From a virus, in the IMG/VR virus record IMGVR_UViG_3300027503_000002: a stretch of 64,000 nt of DNA; one strand, 5' to 3'. The notes under the pieces are model-generated. The model had not been told where the DNA came from, made no database searches, and saw nothing but the letters and a program-made list of their open reading frames with translations. The translations under genes and the position numbers were made by a program. Of the stretch, positions 50,411-61,211 are shown in pieces; within the stretch, counting starts at the first letter, position 1; every line of letters begins with the position of its first letter.

Positions 50411-53400
50411 ATGGCAAAAGGAATCACAGTACCTGTAGTCCAGTCGGGTTTAGAAGCCTCTATCGAGGCGGCGGCCAAAAAAGCTGGACCGCTGACTCTT
50501 TCTGCGTCTGTTGATCCTGGTTCCTTTAAAAGACTAGCCCAGCCTCTTGGTAGAGTAAGCGGTCTGGCAACAGAGTTCGAAAAGTCAATTGCCGCATCAA
50601 ATGCGCGTGTTATCGCATTCGGCGCTTCTGTAGGTATCATCAATGGCGTACAAAATGCTTTTGCTACGCTTGTTAAAACAACAATTGAAGTTGAAAAAAG
50701 CTTGGCTAATATTGCCATTATTAGCGGAAAAACTACTCAGGAACTTGAACCATTTTCCAGAGCGCTTTTTGAGATTGCCAAAACTACCTCGCAATCTTTC
50801 CAGACAGCCTCCGAGGCGGCACTAGAGTTCTCTAGACAGGGCTTGGGTCTTGAAGAAACGCTAAAAAGAACTCAGGACGCCCTTACTCTTACTCGTTTCA
50901 CAACTTTAAGCGCTGCTGAAGCCGTGGATGTACTCACGGCTGCGGCAAACTCTTTCGGAGCAACTGGAATTACAACTAGCGAGATTCTGAATAAGCTGGT
51001 TGCCGTAGATACTAAATTCGCAGTCTCTGCTGAAGACTTGGCTAAAGGCTTGTCCCGTGCTGGCTCGATTGCTCAAGAAGTTGGCGTTAGCTTTGACGAA
51101 TTAAATGCCATCGTCACAATTGCACAAGAAAGAACTGCGCGTGGTGGCGCGGTAATTGGTAACGCATTCAAGACAATTTTCACCAGAATCAGATCAGATG
51201 AAACTATCAAAGCATTGCAAAGCATTGGTATCTATTCATTTGATGCCGAAGGTAGACTGAGGCCGGTTGTAAGTCTTCTTGAGGAATTGGCTGGGAAAAT
51301 TAATACCCTTAGCGAAACCAAGAGAATCGAAGTTCTTGAGGCGATTGCTAGCAAGTACAACATCAACGTTTTGACAGCGCTTGTTGACGACTTGGGCTCA
51401 ACAGCGAGCAAGTTTAGAGAGGCGAGAGATGTTTCTGCGGGCGCGCAAAGCGAGGCATACCAGCGTCAGATTGAACTCAATCAAACTCTAGATGCAGTTA
51501 TCACAAGAGTTACAAATTCAGCCGCTCAGCTTGCTGATACTCTTGGCAGAATTGGCGTTACTGACAGCCTTAAGTCGCTTTTAAACTTTTTTGACAACAT
51601 TCTTACTGGGATTAATGACGTTATCGATTCCGAAGGAATTGGCGGCACTATTGCTAAAGGTTTAATTTCTGGACTTAGTGGAGTATTTTTCAAGATCGGC
51701 ATTCCTCTTCTTCTTGCGATATTCGTTAAGCTGACAAAAGACATTGCCCAATTCGGCACTGAGTCACTAAAAACTATCTTGGGAATCAACAAGGAAGTCA
51801 GGGAGCGCCAAGCTTTGGAACAGGCTGTTGTTAATACGCTGATCAAGGATCAGCAAGTAATGGCGACAATCCTGTCTCTAAGCGGAGATCGCAGAAAGCA
51901 AGAAGAGTATTTACTTTCTGTTTACAATAGGCAGTTAGCGGCGCTTCAGCAAGTACAAAGCATCGCGGCAAATGTTGCCCCTGCACTACAAGCCGCTGGA
52001 CTTAGCGCTACATCTGGAACGATTAAAAAGAGAGCGGCGGGAGGTTATCTGCCAGCAGAAGAGGCGAAAGATGTGCGTCGTGGAGTTGGTGGGGCCAGCC
52101 CTTCTTCTAAAGTCGTAGAGATTCCAAACTTCTCGTTTGGCGGCGGTAAGCGTGGCACGATGGTAGCAAATACCAGCGAATATATTGTGCCTAATTATGC
52201 TGGTGGTAGCGGTACGGCTATCTTTAATCAGGATATGGCGAAGGAGTATGGTCTACCGCCCGGAGCTAAAAAGATTACAGCTTCTGGTGGATTTGTGCCT
52301 GCTAATGGGTTTGTACCAAATTTTGCGGCTAAAAAATTCAATGTTTTTGATCAAGCAAAGGCTAAAGTTAAAAAAGATCAAGAGCCTATAGACTATGTAG
52401 ATCTTGATGGAATACGCAGGTCTGCATATTTAACTTTGGATGCATCAATTGATCCGGTAGGAAGATTTTCTAAATTACAATCTTCAGCGCAGCAGAAATT
52501 AACTGAAAAACTAGGACCAATCGCAGAAAATGCTAAAATTGTTCCTGACCAAGGATCAATTGAATTTGTACAAATTAATAAAAGCTTGCAAAGAGATGAT
52601 TTAGTTCAAAAAATTCGTGAAACTAAAAACAAAATTCAAGCTAATCCAAAAGCTAAAATAGATAAGGATATTGAGGATATTATCCAGTCTATTTTGCCAG
52701 AAACAAAAGGTAGTGTTGACAATAATCTTAAAGCTGCCGTCAAAACAGAACTTCAAGTTCAGGGGCCAGCAGCATTTAGGTCTGGAAATATATTAGAGGA
52801 TATTTTGTTCAAAAAAATTACTGGAACGATAGAGGGAAGAAATAGCAAAACTTGGGATTTGCCAGCAGAACAATCTGGCGCTTTTAAAAGCAGATTTGGG
52901 TTCAAATCTAAATTTGGAGACATAAAATTAGGTTCGTCAACAAGTAGTATTTCGTCATTCATTGGAAAGCATATCATTTCTCCAACGGGTCAAAATGCAT
53001 CGGGGGGCTACATTCCAAATTTTGCGCGCTACGTTTATGACGCTGACAGAGTTGATGCAGATAAAAATAACCTACTAAAGGCTATTTTAGCTTCTCGCGT
53101 CAAGAAGAATTTAATAGTTGGACCAGCGGGATCTGGTAAGTCAACTTACGGGGAGTCTCTTGGTTCATTTATAACCAATATTGCCCAGTTAACAGACGCC
53201 AGTGAGATCGATATTCTTTCAGGCGCGGCAAGAACAAAAGATGGCGGCGTTTCTAAAAACTTCCAGCAAATTTCTGATGCGGTAAATGCATCTGGAGGAA
53301 AGATCTCTTATTTGTACACTGGCAATATGGACATTCTGTCCAGAAGAACTGGAAGAATCGCAGAGGGTCCAAAACAAGGCGATCTCAGAAGCAAGAAGCA

Positions 53401-56400
53401 AATTGCAGGATCGATGTTTGCTCCGCTTAATCAGTTTGATTTTATTTCAAAAGTAAAAGGCTCTGCTAAAAACTTTGAGATGATTCGCGGCGCCAAGGGA
53501 TATGTTCCAAATTTTGCCGATAAAAAGCCAGCGACAATAAAGGGCGGAAAGGTTGATAGAAAAACATATACGGGACCAAGAGCGCTTGTTAGCGCTCAGG
53601 GTATAGCAGGCATGATTGTTCCTGACCAAGCTAATCAGGAAACAATGACTAATTATCTCAAGAAAAATCCTTGGGGCTTCCAAACAAAAGAAGACGTATA
53701 CCTTCCTCCAGAAAATAGTCTTATAACTAATGTAAGGTACAATACTTACGGCTTGAATGAGCAGGCGTTTGAAGGACAGGCTTTGAAGAAAAGCGGAACA
53801 CAAACCTTGATTGAAGCTGATGTTGAAAAAGCTGGCATAGAGATAGCGAAAAAATGGGCTACAAAATATTCAGATGAGTATGCGAAAAAGATGCCTGGCC
53901 GTTCAGTTAAAACTAATTATGATGAAAATTTTATCCGCACATCCTTTACAGAATCAGAAGGCGCCGTCTCGGCAATCTCTACTTTAGGAGGCGGTATATT
54001 TGAGTCTTCTATTAGGGCAGCTTTAGATACTCAAGTTGGACAAAGAATAGAAAAAGCACAAAAAGAAGATTCAAATAACAGGTTAGATTTCCCAGTTAAT
54101 CCATTTCTTAAAGAATTATTTGGTATTGGCGGTGGCGAGCAATTTGTAGATGCAAAGATTTCAGGAAGCCCCGGTTCAACAGGAAGAAAACTAGCTGATC
54201 AAATTGTTGCCGCTCAACTTTATAAACCATACAAAACTGTCAAGACTGCCGCAGCAGAAGGCTATATTCCAAATTTTGCACAAAAGAAACAGCAGTCTAT
54301 CTTGGCCCCATCTGGACAGTTCTATGACCTTGATACCGCTGACGCATTTCTTGCTGCATCTAATGTAAATCTTGAAGCCAAGCCATCTGCTCCAAAGGGT
54401 TTAGGGGATGAATTAAAGAAGAGAATTCTAACTTCAGCTAGAAGAGTTTATGGACCAAATGCACAGATTGGTATTTCAAGATTGCCGGGCAAGAGAGAGG
54501 CTTTCACTTCAACAGTACTGGCAAATCCAGCTTTAGCTGATGACTTCATTGCCTTGCAAAAAGCAACAACTGGTGGCGTTGGACCAGAGTCCAACACTCC
54601 AGAAGCTCTTGCAAAATTTAATAATCCAACGCCTTTTGATCCAACTCCTTGGCCAGCAGTAAGAGCGGTTGGCGGCAAAACTCGCTCGATTAAGAAGGTT
54701 GGGCCAAGATCTTTGAATGCCGCAGCGGGCTACATTCCAAACTTTGCAGATCTTTTTGTTGATTACGATTATACTATTTTTGGACAACAGCTTGGCAAGG
54801 CAACTGATTTTAATGCTCAAAAAGCATTAATTAAAAATATTCCAGAAGACCAAATGACTGAGCAGGAGCGCCAAGCTCGCGATGCTCAAATGAAGCTTTT
54901 GACTCCGTTTGGTCAAAAACTTCTGCAATCGAAGAAGCCTTTCAAACTTGCAACGGCAAGATGGAATGATTATCAACCTGGTATTGAATCCTCTTTGAAG
55001 GGTTTAGGTTTTAATGTTAATGGTGTTTTCGCTTTGGGCAGAGAGTTCTCTGAAGAGCAGTACAAGGTCGATAACCCCAAGTTTGCAGAAGAGATGAAAA
55101 AGCCAGAGGGTGAAAGAAATACTAGAGTAAAACCTAAAATCGATCCATCTGCTGCCCAGAAAAAAGCGTTGTTTTTTAAAGAGCGTGCGCCGAAAATTGC
55201 TACAGGCGATATTGATTTTGTAGATAATGATCCAGCGAACTTGCAAGCAGTAAAATCGCTGATGCCGAAAATAAATACGTTTACTCCTGATCAGTATGCG
55301 GCAAAGCTTTTGGCCCCACAGCGAGTAAAAGGAACAAAGGCTTCGCTGGGATATGTTCCGAACTTTGCTGATAATGACCCATTAAAAGAAGCTGTTAATA
55401 GAGAAGTTGGTGCTGGCGTGCCGCCCGCGCGCGTGCGCGTGACGCAGGATGAAAGATTAAAGAACTCAAAAAACCCAAATGGTCTCGCCGTTATCAACAC
55501 CAGAGACGAGCCAAATGGCAAGATTCCAAATGATTTTAGAGAAAGAGGAATGCGCGCGGCTATGGGAAGTAGAGGGTTTGTACCAAATTTTGCAGATCTT
55601 AGTACAAAACAAATTAAAGAAATTTTAGGCAAGTCTCCAAATCCAATAAGTGCAGAACGGTACACAGGTGGTGAAGGTTTTGATTACGGGGTTCAAACTC
55701 AAAAACAAGGAGATCAGAAACAGGAAGCAAATGATGAAACAAAAAAAATTGATATTGGCAAATTCCTTGTTCTTCAGACCGCAATAGTTGGAGCTACATC
55801 AGCAGTTCAGGCGTTCACAGAAGAAAATAGTAACGCGGCAAATGCTTTAGAAGGTGTAAACGCCGGTCTTTCTGGACTTGCAACATTCGCATCTTTAGCG
55901 GGAAGCGTAAACATACCTCTTAGAATATTTCTTGGTTCGTTGACGGCTTTAGCTTCCGCCGCTCCTTTGATCAGTAGAATTTTTGAAGCTCAAAAAACTC
56001 CCGCCGAAAAAGCTAGCGAGGCTTTAACAAAACTGGCTAGAGAGGCCGAAAGAACTGGTCAAAAACTCACGCCAGAAAATATTTTAGCAAAATTAACAGA
56101 AGGTCGTGCTGAAGGTAAACAAAAACAAGAGGCTGTAAAAGTTTCAGATCTTGTAGAAAAAGCAATAACTAGTACACAATCTGTTGGATTTCCAGATATT
56201 TCTAAGGACTTGATAAAACAAATAAGCGCTGTTCTGTCTGCTACTGGAAATATAACAAGAGATCAAGAGGGCAAAATCACTGGAGTTGATACGGACGCAA
56301 TTAATAAAATTTTTGCAGGGGTGATCACAAAGACAACTGAACAAGGATTAGCTAGTCAAGATTTTATGGGAGGGGTTCAACCTGGTGTTGAGCGCACAGC

Positions 56401-59400
56401 AGTAAATGAAAATTTATTGCAAGAAAATGTCATTGATCTTTTAAACGATCAAATTAAAAATGAGAAACAAAGACTTTCAATTAGACAAGAAGGTCAAGTC
56501 TTAGATAAAGTTCAACAGGCGCTTTTGACTAGGGATAATGAACTACTTTTGTCTAGACAAAAAGCGCTTGAGTCTATTTTTCAAACACAGTTAAAAATAA
56601 ATGAAAAATATAATGAAGAGTCTTTAAGAATTGAAGGCTTGTCTGCTGCACTAGAAAGAGAGAAACAGTTTAGAACAGAATCTTACACAATATCCCAAAA
56701 AGCAGCCTTAGATAAAGAAAAAGCAGAAGCGGAATATAATAAAACTGTGGCGCAGATCGCGCTTGATTTAAGAAAAAATTTAGGCGCTGGGGCTAAAGAA
56801 TCTGTGCTTGGAGGAACTCAACAGGTTCAAGACTTTTTAGGCAATTTAGATACCAGTAAATTACAAGGCTTAATTGATGGATATGCCAATGCGCTTAAAA
56901 CTAACGAGCAAGCTTTAAAAGATGGTACAGTAAAAATTGATGACGTTTTTGGTTCAGTTTGGTCAAAATTTACAGAAGGACTTGTTGGCGTTCCTCCAGA
57001 ATTAAATAACTTAATACTGGGTTCAAAAGAGCAGTTTTTAGCTTTAGTAAGATCAGCTTATGAAACTAAAGCGAATGCCGATCAGACTAGAATATTAACA
57101 AATACGCAGATTGATTTCGCCGCAACAAATTCAGAAGCTAATACAGAACTTAGAAAATTACAAAGCGCATACAAACAGAATAGGTCAAGACTGGCGTACT
57201 TGAATAGCCGCAATGACGGAAGCGAAACTCAAGATATTACATCTGATGAAGCTGCGGCAGTTGAAGAACAGTTAAATATTCAAAGAGAAAAATTAATTAC
57301 TTCCATACAAGACTTGGAAATTGCTAATGCGGAAGAAATAGCCCTGCTTCCAGAAAAGAAAAAAGCTGATTTACAAAGAGTCCTAATTACCAACGGTCAC
57401 GCAAAATCAATTCGTGAATTAACTGGAATCGATCAGGCAGCGGCAATTGCAGCTTCAAATCTTAGTGAAGAAACTGATAAAAGAGTATTTCAGTTAAAAA
57501 CTGACGCTAAAAATGCAGAACTAAAGCTTAATACAGATAATAATTTATTAAATGCAGAAACAGACTTGATCGACGCCTATAATCAAGCCTACAAAGGCAG
57601 TATCCAAACTGAAACTGTTGCAGCTAAATTAAGAAGTGCTCAATCAAAATTGACAAAATCCGAGTCTGATAAAGATGATGAATTACAAGTTCAAATTGCT
57701 CTTATACAGCAAAATTGGAAAGGTGAAAGCAGAGATATCCAAAGAAAGACTGAGCTTTTAAGAGAGCAGAATAAAAAGATCAGTGTAACTCAGCAAGCCA
57801 TACGATTAGAAGAGCAGTTAAATCTTGAAGCTGAACAGTTAATTGAAGCTAGAAGAAAAGCCTCCGCAGCGCTTTCAGAAATCAATCTGACAAAAGCGAT
57901 TGAAAATCAAATTACTTCCGCTGGAACTGCAAACATTCAGGAAATAACAAAAACAATAGTGCAAGGCCGAGCTTTAACACAAACTGGAGTACAGTCTAGT
58001 TTTGAGCAGCAGGCAAGAGCTTCGGTTTTTGAAAGAAGAATGGCTGGAAGAACAGAAGTTGATCTAAGAGAGAGTACTAATATTCTTAGTGGGAGAGACA
58101 ACTCCATTCAGCAAAATTTACAAATTCAACGAGGCGTTCTTCTCGATCAGGCCGAAACATTCCAGCAAATTATTGGTAATCAGACACCAAAACTGTTTGC
58201 GGATGGAATGGCGGAAGCGATGCAGGCTGCTCTTAATCAGGCAGATGATCTTGGTGGCGCATTAAGAAATGTTGCCCTTAACTTCCTAAAGAGCCTTCAG
58301 AGCGCATTTTTACAAAGTGCTTCAAGACAGATTGTAGCTTCTATTCTGCCAACAGGCGCGGCAAAGGGTGGCTATGTAAAGGGTTACGCAACTGGTGGTC
58401 TTGTGACTGGCGGTAGCGGATATAAGGATGATGTGCCAGCAATGTTGAGTGAGGGTGAATATGTAATTCGCAAGTCTTCTGTTAAAAAGTATGGCGCATC
58501 TAATCTACAAAAGCTAAATTCAGGAGAAGCTCCTAAGTTTGCAGCTGGTGGCATTTTCCTACCCGGTATTCGTGGCCAAACTGAAATTTCAGGCTATAAG
58601 GATTTAACCGCTTTTGCTAAACAAACAACAACAAGCGGCGCAACAGATGTATTAGCTGGCGGCGCAACAACCGCTTTTGCCAACCTTGAAGATCAAAGCT
58701 CAAGACTTTCTGCTTATGCTTTGATGAGAGAGGATGACACCATAAATCAGGAGATTCGCAGCGCTCAAGAGCAGGCTATGAATATAATGGCCGAAAGAGA
58801 AGCTTACAGAACTGCTGAAAGAAAAGCATTTCAGAAACAGCTTGTTGGAACAGTAGCCTCCGCTGCTTTAAGTTATGGAATAAATGCTGGGGTTGGAAAA
58901 TTAGGAAGTCTATTTAGTGGTGCGGCAGCGGCTGGAAAGGGTTCCGCTACTGGATTAGGTTTAATGGACCAAGTTTCTGGCAAAACTCAATTTTTGACAA
59001 ATGCGAAGCCTTTTAGTTTTCAATCTCCACCAGCATTCAATTATAGCTTTGGCCCAACAAAGGCTTATGGTGGAATGATCAAGCGTTACAACGCTGGCGG
59101 TCCAACAGACGATATTCCCGCACTTCTTATGGGTGGCGAGTATGTAATGAATCGCCAAGCAACCAAGAAATACGGTAAACAATTCTTTGATTCGATCAAT
59201 CAAGGCCGCGCTCCAAGATTTGCTGATGGCGGTCAAGTTTCCACCGCAGAGCCAAGCTTCGCTGAGAAAGCGGCGACAAGTTCTGACTCTAAAGCCGCAG
59301 GAGCTACAAATGTTAGCATCAATATCAATGTAACTGGCGGAACATCAGATACCCAGACTCAGGGTGATACCAAACAGGGCGGCATTGACTACAAGAAGAT

Positions 59401-59479
59401 GAGCGAGCAGATCAAACAAGTCGTCATCCAAACAATCAATGAGGAAAAGAGACTAGGCGGATCATTAAGAAGTAGATAA
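50411..59479 (+). CDS. tape measure protein (3022 aa) with inserted enzyme-like modules
   Basis: N-terminal TP901-type TMP core (EFSRQG, AVSAEDLAKGL.RAGS, IGNAFKTIFTRI), long coiled-coil, C-terminal YATGG..DDVPAMLSEGEYV motifs. Confidence 0.85.
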   Translation: MAKGITVPVVQSGLEASIEAAAKKAGPLTLSASVDPGSFKRLAQPLGRVSGLATEFEKSIAASNARVIAFGASVGIINGVQNAFATLVKTTIEVEKSLANIAIISGKTTQELEPFSRALFEIAKTTSQSFQTASEAALEFSRQGLGLEETLKRTQDALTLTRFTTLSAAEAVDVLTAAANSFGATGITTSEILNKLVAVDTKFAVSAEDLAKGLSRAGSIAQEVGVSFDELNAIVTIAQERTARGGAVIGNAFKTIFTRIRSDETIKALQSIGIYSFDAEGRLRPVVSLLEELAGKINTLSETKRIEVLEAIASKYNINVLTALVDDLGSTASKFREARDVSAGAQSEAYQRQIELNQTLDAVITRVTNSAAQLADTLGRIGVTDSLKSLLNFFDNILTGINDVIDSEGIGGTIAKGLISGLSGVFFKIGIPLLLAIFVKLTKDIAQFGTESLKTILGINKEVRERQALEQAVVNTLIKDQQVMATILSLSGDRRKQEEYLLSVYNRQLAALQQVQSIAANVAPALQAAGLSATSGTIKKRAAGGYLPAEEAKDVRRGVGGASPSSKVVEIPNFSFGGGKRGTMVANTSEYIVPNYAGGSGTAIFNQDMAKEYGLPPGAKKITASGGFVPANGFVPNFAAKKFNVFDQAKAKVKKDQEPIDYVDLDGIRRSAYLTLDASIDPVGRFSKLQSSAQQKLTEKLGPIAENAKIVPDQGSIEFVQINKSLQRDDLVQKIRETKNKIQANPKAKIDKDIEDIIQSILPETKGSVDNNLKAAVKTELQVQGPAAFRSGNILEDILFKKITGTIEGRNSKTWDLPAEQSGAFKSRFGFKSKFGDIKLGSSTSSISSFIGKHIISPTGQNASGGYIPNFARYVYDADRVDADKNNLLKAILASRVKKNLIVGPAGSGKSTYGESLGSFITNIAQLTDASEIDILSGAARTKDGGVSKNFQQISDAVNASGGKISYLYTGNMDILSRRTGRIAEGPKQGDLRSKKQIAGSMFAPLNQFDFISKVKGSAKNFEMIRGAKGYVPNFADKKPATIKGGKVDRKTYTGPRALVSAQGIAGMIVPDQANQETMTNYLKKNPWGFQTKEDVYLPPENSLITNVRYNTYGLNEQAFEGQALKKSGTQTLIEADVEKAGIEIAKKWATKYSDEYAKKMPGRSVKTNYDENFIRTSFTESEGAVSAISTLGGGIFESSIRAALDTQVGQRIEKAQKEDSNNRLDFPVNPFLKELFGIGGGEQFVDAKISGSPGSTGRKLADQIVAAQLYKPYKTVKTAAAEGYIPNFAQKKQQSILAPSGQFYDLDTADAFLAASNVNLEAKPSAPKGLGDELKKRILTSARRVYGPNAQIGISRLPGKREAFTSTVLANPALADDFIALQKATTGGVGPESNTPEALAKFNNPTPFDPTPWPAVRAVGGKTRSIKKVGPRSLNAAAGYIPNFADLFVDYDYTIFGQQLGKATDFNAQKALIKNIPEDQMTEQERQARDAQMKLLTPFGQKLLQSKKPFKLATARWNDYQPGIESSLKGLGFNVNGVFALGREFSEEQYKVDNPKFAEEMKKPEGERNTRVKPKIDPSAAQKKALFFKERAPKIATGDIDFVDNDPANLQAVKSLMPKINTFTPDQYAAKLLAPQRVKGTKASLGYVPNFADNDPLKEAVNREVGAGVPPARVRVTQDERLKNSKNPNGLAVINTRDEPNGKIPNDFRERGMRAAMGSRGFVPNFADLSTKQIKEILGKSPNPISAERYTGGEGFDYGVQTQKQGDQKQEANDETKKIDIGKFLVLQTAIVGATSAVQAFTEENSNAANALEGVNAGLSGLATFASLAGSVNIPLRIFLGSLTALASAAPLISRIFEAQKTPAEKASEALTKLAREAERTGQKLTPENILAKLTEGRAEGKQKQEAVKVSDLVEKAITSTQSVGFPDISKDLIKQISAVLSATGNITRDQEGKITGVDTDAINKIFAGVITKTTEQGLASQDFMGGVQPGVERTAVNENLLQENVIDLLNDQIKNEKQRLSIRQEGQVLDKVQQALLTRDNELLLSRQKALESIFQTQLKINEKYNEESLRIEGLSAALEREKQFRTESYTISQKAALDKEKAEAEYNKTVAQIALDLRKNLGAGAKESVLGGTQQVQDFLGNLDTSKLQGLIDGYANALKTNEQALKDGTVKIDDVFGSVWSKFTEGLVGVPPELNNLILGSKEQFLALVRSAYETKANADQTRILTNTQIDFAATNSEANTELRKLQSAYKQNRSRLAYLNSRNDGSETQDITSDEAAAVEEQLNIQREKLITSIQDLEIANAEEIALLPEKKKADLQRVLITNGHAKSIRELTGIDQAAAIAASNLSEETDKRVFQLKTDAKNAELKLNTDNNLLNAETDLIDAYNQAYKGSIQTETVAAKLRSAQSKLTKSESDKDDELQVQIALIQQNWKGESRDIQRKTELLREQNKKISVTQQAIRLEEQLNLEAEQLIEARRKASAALSEINLTKAIENQITSAGTANIQEITKTIVQGRALTQTGVQSSFEQQARASVFERRMAGRTEVDLRESTNILSGRDNSIQQNLQIQRGVLLDQAETFQQIIGNQTPKLFADGMAEAMQAALNQADDLGGALRNVALNFLKSLQSAFLQSASRQIVASILPTGAAKGGYVKGYATGGLVTGGSGYKDDVPAMLSEGEYVIRKSSVKKYGASNLQKLNSGEAPKFAAGGIFLPGIRGQTEISGYKDLTAFAKQTTTSGATDVLAGGATTAFANLEDQSSRLSAYALMREDDTINQEIRSAQEQAMNIMAEREAYRTAERKAFQKQLVGTVASAALSYGINAGVGKLGSLFSGAAAAGKGSATGLGLMDQVSGKTQFLTNAKPFSFQSPPAFNYSFGPTKAYGGMIKRYNAGGPTDDIPALLMGGEYVMNRQATKKYGKQFFDSINQGRAPRFADGGQVSTAEPSFAEKAATSSDSKAAGATNVSININVTGGTSDTQTQGDTKQGGIDYKKMSEQIKQVVIQTINEEKRLGGSLRSR
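52307..55594 (+). repeat. seven in-frame G[YF][IV]PNFA peptide repeats inside the tape measure
   Basis: Codon starts at 52307, 53006, 53498, 54260, 54728, 55349 and 55574. Confidence 0.9.
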
Positions 59480-60249
59480 TGAAATCATCAGTATCAAGCT
59501 ATGAAAACAGTCTTTATATCAGCGGCGTCAAAATATTTGGCGTCAACGATGTTAATTTCGGCTATTCTTTGCCGATTGAGCACATCAATGTTATCGGCGC
59601 TAATAAATTTACTACTTTTACCAATAACGCGCCGCAGTCAAACCTGAGTGTTCAGAAGTACCTTTCGCCAGCAGACTTCTTTTTAAATTTTACGGGGGCT
59701 GGACAGGTCAGCGGCGGTTTATTTTACAATAATAAGAATTTTACATTTAATCGCGCGTATCTTAATAATTATTCTGTTTCCTGCGCCGTTGGAAACTTTC
59801 CATCTCTAAGCGCCGATTTCACAATCTTTGGTAATGTAGGAACTGGTGTCGCAAGTTCGGGGGCTAGCCAAACAGGCGCACTATCAGTCGTCCGTCCTAG
59901 AGATATAGCTATTCGATGCGATGGTACTGGAACAAACAGAATCGAAGCTTTTACATACTCACTTGAGTGCCCAAGACAGGCTTTTTATCATCCAACTGGA
60001 TCAACTCCAATGGATGTTGTGACATTGCGCCCATTTAGGGCAACCGCCCAGTTCACGCTTGGCGTTGATGATTATGAGTCGAAAAGAGTTTTAGATTATA
60101 TTGTTGATTCCAACAAGCAGAATATTAATATAACAATAGGGTCTCTGGCGACATTTTCAATGAACAATATGGAGTTAATAAGTGAAACGATCAATTCGTC
60201 CGCAACTGACGAGCTTTCGTTAACGCTTACTTATCAAGGATTTGTCTAA
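59479..60249 (+). CDS. tail-tube-like tail-tip protein
   Basis: AYLNNYSVSCAVGNFPSLS and VVRPRDI align with tail tube AYITNYTVEAAVGGLPTVS and ALRPGDI. Confidence 0.6.
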   Translation: MKSSVSSYENSLYISGVKIFGVNDVNFGYSLPIEHINVIGANKFTTFTNNAPQSNLSVQKYLSPADFFLNFTGAGQVSGGLFYNNKNFTFNRAYLNNYSVSCAVGNFPSLSADFTIFGNVGTGVASSGASQTGALSVVRPRDIAIRCDGTGTNRIEAFTYSLECPRQAFYHPTGSTPMDVVTLRPFRATAQFTLGVDDYESKRVLDYIVDSNKQNINITIGSLATFSMNNMELISETINSSATDELSLTLTYQGFV

Positions 60250-61211
60250 TGTCATTTCTATACGACAGAGATTATAATGTCACAGGAACGGTTCAAACAA
60301 CGTTTGATTTTAAACCGTCTTATGGAACCTCTGTCAATTTTTCGGCGGATTTAAGCTCTTATGTTACTGTCGATAATTATTTATATTCAATGCCAAGAGG
60401 AATGAATCATTTGCAGATGACGGTGCAAATGCCATTTGAAAACAGAAAAGAGGCTGAAGCTACAAGAATTGCCAGTTTCTTTGAGAATCTTCGCGGCACA
60501 GGATATTTCACTTTTACCGATCCAGCTTCGATATACAAGCCAGTTAATTTATTTTGCGGCGGAATTCAAACTAATTTCACAGTCAATGATCTTTATACAA
60601 TACAAGTCGAATTGGCTACGGATCAAGTTTCGTCTCTTTTAAATTGGAATGGAATGTTTGTTACGGGCTCTGGCATAAAGGGAAGTTGGGCCACATCTAC
60701 TGCGTATTCAAAATACGATGTTGTCAGACATACTGGCAATGCATCTTTCCCGCAGAATACCGGCAACTTATATGATTGCTTTTATTACTGTACTGGCGAT
60801 CACACAAGCCAGTCTTCCATCAATGGCTCAGAAATTACCAACGGAAAATGGACGCAGGAGTTCTTTTTTCAGCCAACTTACTCGTCAACGGTGGGCAAAG
60901 AGACTTCTACTTTAAAGACAGAGTTGCCGTATTCATTCACAAAAAGAAGCGATTTTGGACTGCACGGAAATGTTCTAAAACAATTTACGATGGAGTTTAA
61001 GGGAATCACTGATCTTGAGGCGAGATCGATTTTACACTTTCTAACTGGAAGACAGGGCTATAGAAAGTTCCAGTATAAAATACCAAATATATATAATAAA
61101 AACAAATACTTTTTTGCACCAGAGTGGAAGCACACTTTTGTTTATAAAAATGTAAATGATATTTCAGTAACGCTGGTGGAAGATCCTGTCGGCATAAGGA
61201 GGGTTTACTAA
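60249..61211 (+). CDS. minor tail (distal-tail-like) protein, duplicated domain with CBM-like insert
   Basis: Two FxP(S/T)Y..EA..I..F....G...F units; WATSTAYSKYDVV insertion. Confidence 0.55.
   Translation: MSFLYDRDYNVTGTVQTTFDFKPSYGTSVNFSADLSSYVTVDNYLYSMPRGMNHLQMTVQMPFENRKEAEATRIASFFENLRGTGYFTFTDPASIYKPVNLFCGGIQTNFTVNDLYTIQVELATDQVSSLLNWNGMFVTGSGIKGSWATSTAYSKYDVVRHTGNASFPQNTGNLYDCFYYCTGDHTSQSSINGSEITNGKWTQEFFFQPTYSSTVGKETSTLKTELPYSFTKRSDFGLHGNVLKQFTMEFKGITDLEARSILHFLTGRQGYRKFQYKIPNIYNKNKYFFAPEWKHTFVYKNVNDISVTLVEDPVGIRRVY

Follow-up and report, generated by a model that had tools for sequence, protein, structure and literature searches.

A tape measure protein carrying a cassette array

The 64,000-nucleotide stretch of viral DNA recorded as IMG/VR virus record IMGVR_UViG_3300027503_000002, referred to here as the window, encodes a tape measure protein of 3,022 amino acids (aa) in an open reading frame (ORF) at 50411-59479 on the + strand. 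The ORF is assigned as a genuine tail tape measure protein by its family matches, namely PF10145 at aa 123-312 (E 1.1e-27) and twelve PHROG tape measure families that match its N- and C-terminal parts (phrog_4211, E 4.9e-48). Between two hydrophobic segments, the protein carries six cassettes set apart by linkers of the form G[YF][IV]PNFA. Two of these cassettes look like catalytically intact enzyme domains: cassette 2, of P-loop kinase fold, and cassette 5, a phosphatase domain of the haloacid dehalogenase (HAD) superfamily. An earlier note on this DNA, drawn up by a model from the sequence alone, had placed two such modules inside the tape measure protein, a location with which the PF10145 and PHROG matches agree.

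The linker occurs seven times between aa 633 and 1728, with starts at nucleotides 52307, 53006, 53498, 54260, 54728, 55349 and 55574. All linkers, cassettes, motifs and hydrophobic segments given below by nucleotide position are on the + strand. Cassette 2 (aa 873-1029; 53027-53497; 157 aa) is preceded by GYIPNFA (53006-53026) and followed by GYVPNFA (53498-53518), and the same two linker variants, in the same order, bound cassette 5 (aa 1447-1646; 54749-55348; 200 aa) at 54728-54748 and 55349-55369. The limits given to the two modules in the earlier note are exactly the stretches between successive linkers.

Cassette 2, a P-loop kinase-fold domain

Conservation in cassette 2 was assessed on 45 copies and on a curated alignment of 17 rows (A4), in which 14 residues are invariant: D5, D7, P33, G35, G37, K38, S65, K71, R106, R107, R110, D119, R121 and A132. 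The Walker A motif that had been read from the sequence lies at 53120-53143 (aa 904-911), where GPAGSGKS contributes the invariant residues P33, G35, G37 and K38. The RR segment previously described as lid-like reads SRRTGR, and its three arginines (R978, R979 and R982; 53342-53356) are invariant in the 17 homologues; together with D991 and R993, also invariant, they form a lid-like helix and loop at 53342-53389, of the pattern RRxxR...DxR. A third conserved element, D877-x-D879 (53039-53047), closes the N-terminal strand (YVYDAD) and corresponds to the invariant D5 and D7.

AlphaFold2 run on A4 gives a confident model (pLDDT 91.4, pTM 0.87) with five strands, including one at residues 2-5 that leads into the DxD. 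The strand at residues 93-97 is followed by a long helix (residues 100-113) that bears three arginines, such that an arginine-bearing lid is present after strand 4, with R106, R107, R110 and R121 of the helix and the following loop all invariant. The model has the three-layer alpha/beta fold, and its nearest structures are kinases. Foldseek searches of PDB and BFVD return matches at E 8e-4 or weaker, the best-ranked being P-loop kinases: adenylate, guanylate, shikimate and polynucleotide kinases, and zeta toxins. In the ESM Atlas, the closest clusters carry AAA_33 and Zeta_toxin; their score of about 0.9 is to be taken as a lead only. Sequence searches of cassette 2 against Pfam and PDB gave only sub-threshold P-loop matches and no Pfam family (AAA_33 scored 12.4 bits against a 27-bit cut-off). 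Another reading is that cassette 2 would be a zeta-toxin or AvrRxo1-like kinase that acts on UDP-GlcNAc or NAD(H) and disturbs the host envelope or metabolism at entry. Zeta toxin is one of several kinase types that tie as structural matches, and we consider this reading very improbable.

No invariant acidic residue is found between Walker A and the lid in A4; the invariant acids D5 and D7 are those of the N-terminal hhhDxD strand. This strand probably supplies the Walker B or the catalytic acid/base function of cassette 2. The cassette is under purifying selection, with dN/dS values of 0.073 and 0.055 against two copies of 85-86% identity, for which dS is near saturation.

The domain also occurs outside tape measure proteins. 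Six homologues of 147-159 aa (P0038, P0050, P0058, P0061, P0062 and P0068) start with a Met exactly at the start of the module, end at its end and have no linkers. Because these linker-free proteins span just the module, the cassette 2 family exists as ordinary genes too. The gene for one of them, P0038, is found on a marine contig of 58 kb, where it is surrounded by small ORFs, adjoins a DprA-like gene and lies outside any tail block. More distant tape measure proteins at two other loci hold the domain without any PNFA linkers (L031, 2995-3438; L032, 2992-3501), so that tape measure proteins have acquired the domain in at least two architectural contexts. Altogether, cassette 2 looks like a catalytically intact P-loop kinase-fold domain of about 155 aa that belongs to an unnamed family.

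Cassette 5, a HAD phosphatase domain

Relatives of cassette 5 were collected from 20 IMG/VR loci related to the database protein P0010, by splitting their tape measure proteins at the linkers. Homologous cassettes of 142 aa are present in 15 related tape measure proteins, and alignment A2 comprises ten rows, that is, the window copy and nine related cassettes that are 30-37% identical to it. The four HAD motifs follow one another in order. Motif I is DYDYT (D1451, D1453 and T1455; 54761-54775), which reads DWDGT or DFDGT in relatives; motif II is T1515-A-R1517 (54953-54961), with both T69 and R71 invariant; motif III is K1585 within QKK (55163-55165); and motif IV is D1605-N-D1607 within FVDND (55223-55231), which reads VDD or VDN in relatives. 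The residues D5, D7, T9, T69, K139 and D159 are invariant in the ten A2 sequences, the consensus of the relatives being DWDGT / ATxR / K / VDD. The motif series reported in the earlier note, from DLFVDYDYT at the opening of the module (DxD at 54761) through ATAR and QKK to FVDND, is thus conserved. Seven of seven catalytic positions are kept at an overall identity of about 35%, a retention assessed from these alignments as more than chance.

A profile search also retrieved two free-standing homologues with a Met at the start of the module, P0153 (133 aa) and P0154 (131 aa), which read DFDGT / ATAR / K / VDD. None of the ten family members matches a Pfam family at E <= 10, the family profile has no match among PDB sequences, and scans of Pfam, PDB and IMG/VR with cassette 5 alone found no relatives.

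Structure prediction and Foldseek comparison had been suggested in the earlier note as a check on both modules; as cassette 2 leads to P-loop kinases, so cassette 5 leads to HAD enzymes. Its AlphaFold2 model is mediocre and of low confidence (pLDDT 65.8, pTM 0.56), and all the Foldseek matches listed for it are HAD enzymes (best E 2.6e-3). HAD enzymes also account for 49 of the 50 best VIA matches, where the scores of the Pnkp1 phosphatase domain (7.7-7.9), BT 3qnm (7.7), MDP-1 (7.6) and the T4 Pnkp phosphatase (7.2-7.5) are tied. Catalytic residues are conserved in the homologues of both cassettes (A4 and A2), and cassette 5 looks like a small, catalytically intact HAD phosphatase domain with four catalytic motifs.

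The window copy is 58 aa longer than its relatives, with helical inserts after motif I and between motifs II and III and a longer C-terminus. The positions of the two inserts are the two HAD cap positions. Cap inserts in HADs usually accompany small substrates, and the gain of such inserts by the window copy is one of the points in favour of a reading in which the cassettes are small-nucleotide enzymes. The HAD domain would then resemble T5 Dmp in being a 5′-(deoxy)nucleotidase, or would degrade a phosphorylated signal; the kinase would be of nucleoside monophosphate (NMP) or nucleoside type; and the two, together or separately, would alter the pool of host nucleotides or second messengers as the phage enters. 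In the Atlas, the canonical HAD cassette (L001:5202-5630) has as its neighbours unnamed viral proteins of 145-164 aa (0.95), T5 dNMPase (0.93) and HAD_PNKP clusters (0.91), and it adjoins the Phage_T5_dNMPase clusters with 172 shared features. The T5 5′-deoxynucleotidase family (PF26880) and HAD_PNKP (PF25109), the nearest Atlas clusters, resemble the cassette in being viral, about 140-160 aa long and marked by DxDGT. Adenylate, UMP and guanylate kinases tie, moreover, as the best structural match of cassette 2. However, the analysis recognised no NMP-binding motif, the Atlas scores count as leads only, and there is no Pfam match to PF26880 or to any kinase family. The HAD cassette, unlike members of PF26880 and PF25109, matches neither profile at E <= 10 and forms a separate sequence family. 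On this evidence, small-nucleotide chemistry is a rather unlikely account of the two cassettes.

Exchange of cassettes among related tape measure proteins

When aa 640-1728 were searched with HMMER against 1.84 billion representatives, 332 matches were obtained, of which the 150 listed were searched cassette by cassette with phmmer. Among these 150 proteins, 45 have cassette 2, 18 have cassette 3 and two each have cassettes 1 and 4, while cassette 5 was represented by a single weak piece, in P0010. Cassette 6 is present in 134 of the 150 and M0, a module ahead of the array, in 101; by this distribution, cassette 6 and M0 are taken to be the core of this tape measure lineage and the flanks of its array. 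Relatives have arrays of between one and about eleven cassettes, with over 50 cassette clusters in all. The arrays of P0031, P0088 and P0093 hold 7-11 cassettes of mostly unique types, one protein reaching 4,831 aa. A tblastn search with aa 873-1646 against 50,697 phage records gave no match, and word-index homologue searches with cassette 2 alone or cassette 5 alone returned nothing.

A clear case of exchange is provided by P0002, which is 94% identical to the window protein over aa 640-1449. At aa 1442-1585, it has an unrelated cassette of 130 aa where the window (54728-55369) has cassette 5, and cassette 6 is present again beyond this slot; the identity is 94% to either side of it. The comparison points to a recent, clean replacement of one cassette at the linkers. 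Another 13-15 tape measure proteins have a cassette of the replacement type. In a 2023 survey of mosaicism in phage proteins, a mosaic signal was reported for tape measure proteins, of which recent cases were not confirmable (PMC10684548). The exchange seen here at 94% identity, with one cassette replaced, differs from that survey in being a clear recent case.

Are the kinase and the phosphatase a pair?

T4 polynucleotide kinase combines a P-loop kinase and a HAD phosphatase and heals RNA or DNA ends cut by host defences. The earlier note had proposed that the two modules of the window form a pair of this kind, a polynucleotide kinase-phosphatase (PNKP)-like pair. In this reading, cassettes 2 and 5 would be a split PNKP that heals 5′-OH and 3′-P or 2′,3′-cyclic-P ends, as T4 Pnkp does, the ends being the products of anticodon nucleases or other nucleases of host defence. 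There are several points of resemblance. As in T4 PseT and bacterial Pnkp/Pnkp1, a P-loop kinase fold and a small DxDxT HAD phosphatase are found in one phage polypeptide; T4 PseT/Pnkp1 are top-ranked, though tied, structural neighbours of both cassettes; and the Arg two residues after the Ser/Thr of motif II is shared with T4 PseT/Pnkp.

Sequence and structure comparisons nevertheless set the cassettes apart from T4 PseT. No more than 1 Z separates the PNKP-type structural matches from those to adenylate kinases, zeta toxin, MDP-1 and generic HADs, which amounts to a tie. In hhalign comparisons with T4 PseT (L035:6-908:-), similarity is limited to 20 columns around the P-loop for cassette 2 (probability 59%) and to motif I for the cassette 5 family (E 0.084). 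About 20 residues past the P-loop Lys, where T4 has D35, cassette 2 has no invariant Asp; the kinase cassette lacks this post-P-loop catalytic residue and has instead the invariant N-terminal DxD. Finally, T4 PseT is an early cytoplasmic enzyme, whereas the cassettes lie in a virion tape measure protein.

The distribution of the two cassettes bears on the question more directly. When all cassettes were clustered by single linkage, unsplit double cassettes caused the families of cassettes 2, 3 and 6 to merge, and hidden Markov model (HMM) calls were therefore used for cassette assignment. HMMs of the cassette 2 and HAD families were run against all collected tape measure proteins, a sample biased by the route of collection. 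Both cassettes are present in seven proteins (the window, L003, L005, L006, L009, L012 and L019). The HAD cassette occurs without cassette 2 in nine, which amount to three full-length architectures, their near-duplicates and one truncated copy, and 47 proteins, about 30 of them tape measure proteins of at least 1,400 aa, have cassette 2 without the HAD cassette. Even proteins with both cassettes never have them side by side: cassette 3 always comes after cassette 2 and is followed by zero or one cassette before the HAD, and in the window cassettes 3 and 4 stand between the kinase and the phosphatase. In spite of its bias, the sample suffices to show independent inheritance of cassettes 2 and 5. 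P0002, although 94% identical, is without the HAD, and no ligase-like cassette was recognised in the array.

From these comparisons, cassettes 2 and 5 are best described as independent, individually exchangeable cargo modules that form no obligate pair. Of the pairing proposed earlier, the kinase and HAD folds stand; an obligate PNKP-like pair is not supported, since the cassettes are never adjacent, assort independently and share with the T4 PseT profile only the P-loop and motif I. A split PNKP is accordingly regarded as unlikely. End-healing can still be entertained for each cassette singly, because the top-ranked structures are RNA-repair enzymes.

Delivery into the host and possible functions

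The best overall explanation is, in our judgement, a reasonably probable one: both cassettes would be enzymatically intact cargo that becomes exposed to the host interior and acts on nucleic-acid ends or nucleotide-type substrates. The cassettes probably enter the host along with the contents of the tail. The hydrophobic segments that flank the array lie upstream at 51659-51739 (aa 417-443; maximum of 2.09 in a 19-aa Kyte-Doolittle window) and downstream at 55925-55981 (aa 1839-1857; Kyte-Doolittle); both are membrane-like. All six cassettes are basic (pI 9.0-10.0). In the proposed sequence of events, the tape measure protein would leave first as the tail empties, its hydrophobic segments would enter the membrane, and the basic array (pI 9-10) would then be exposed to the host interior. 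With ATP from the host, the kinase cassette could phosphorylate a nucleic-acid end or a substrate of nucleotide type, and the HAD cassette could take the phosphate off such a substrate, both acting ahead of all phage gene expression. Since kinases depend on ATP, the kinase cassette would have to act in the cytoplasm, and its conservation across dozens of metagenomic phages implies a site of work in the host cytoplasm for part of the tape measure protein.

An alternative is that the cassettes have no catalytic role after ejection, serving as structural spacers or tail plugs, or that they work only in the producing cell, late in infection or during assembly. It has in its favour that globular domains of 150-250 aa fit poorly in the tail lumen, and the variation of the array from one to about eleven cassettes among relatives suggests that no single cassette is essential. 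Against it, precisely the catalytic residues are invariant across homologues of 27-45% identity, and dN/dS is about 0.06 for cassette 2. Free-standing homologues keep the same residues outside tape measure proteins, where a spacer would not need them. A non-catalytic role is thus quite improbable.

Enzymatic domains are found in other tape measure proteins. Muralytic domains are carried by those of mycobacteriophage TM4 (an Rpf-like motif), T5 (pb2) and staphylococcal phages, and, as in the window, the enzymatic domain is inserted in the tape measure protein and, in these phages, is used at entry. Their domains, unlike those proposed here, cut peptidoglycan outside the cytoplasm. To our knowledge, the enzymes known within tape measure proteins cut the cell wall, and we know of no multi-cassette array with free-standing homologues described for the muralytic ones. 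No prior description of tape measure proteins with kinase or HAD cassettes was found in the literature.

A further analogy is offered by the polyvalent proteins of phages and conjugative elements (Iyer et al. 2017, PMC5512222), for which entry together with the DNA and action ahead of gene expression have been proposed. They too are giant polypeptides with many unrelated enzyme modules. Tape measure proteins, HAD domains and P-loop kinases go unmentioned in that study. Polyvalent proteins are marked by embedded zincin-like processing peptidases, whereas the window array has no recognised peptidase and has the repeated G[YF][IV]PNFA linker; family searches of the entire 3,022-aa protein found no peptidase family. 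A 2026 paper describes Sle1-type, tape-measure-related modular effectors of actinobacterial contractile injection systems (PMC13277306). According to its abstract, these likewise combine a tape-measure-derived scaffold with an exchangeable functional domain, and Sle1 is loaded in a tail-like particle and ejected. They differ in belonging to another, non-phage lineage and in having a single C-terminal functional domain, and the abstract names no kinase or HAD cassettes.

Beyond the two enzymes, it is tempting to view the PNFA array as a programmable effector-delivery platform, in which interchangeable enzymes, acquired by this phage lineage from free-standing phage genes, would be released into the host at ejection, possibly by cleavage at the linkers. 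The kinase and the HAD would then be a pre-made counter-defence, through RNA-end repair or the destruction of alarm nucleotides, in place before phage transcription. This proposal, which extends the pre-emptive anti-defence role suggested in the earlier note, is tentative and somewhat doubtful. If the cassettes do act in the host, the tail ruler would be a carrier of pre-made intracellular enzymes for early host takeover or counter-defence, a route that, as far as we know, has not been described for long-tailed phages. The linker-bounded cassettes also suggest a route for loading foreign cargo into phage tails. The analysis also defines two unnamed domain families that occur in both free-standing and embedded forms: a P-loop kinase fold of 150 aa, marked by an N-terminal DxD strand, and a HAD of 142 aa.

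Other features of the array

The remaining cassettes are cassette 1 (aa 640-865), cassette 3 (aa 1037-1283; 53519-54259), cassette 4 (aa 1291-1439) and the widespread core module cassette 6 (aa 1654-1721; 55370-55573). M0 lies ahead of the array at 52067-52288. Downstream of the tape measure ORF, the second gene, at 60249-61211, encodes a minor tail protein (phrog_14). The six cassettes show no significant similarity when compared among themselves, and cassettes 1 and 3 as paralogues are not supported (BLASTP E 2.8).

Cassette 3 had no Pfam or PDB sequence match, and its profile against PDB gave only chance-level hydrogenase matches. Its family counts 16 members in the fetched loci and 18 among the listed database proteins, with invariant residues (E162, D190, E207 and D211-x-K213) that form a PD-(D/E)xK-like pattern. 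Where a tape measure protein has cassettes 2 and 3, the latter usually comes directly after the former.

Short stretches of the form G-x-x-V-x-N-x-x-E...P-N, held by both M0 and cassette 6, resemble the linker. Linkers can also decay: a degenerate linker, KFVPSYA or KFVPNYA, fuses two cassettes into a 350-aa unit at two related loci (L003:5160-6212 and L005:4150-5196). At the DNA level, the seven linkers of the window have CCA AAT/C TTT GC in common, a microhomology that could guide the exchange of cassettes.

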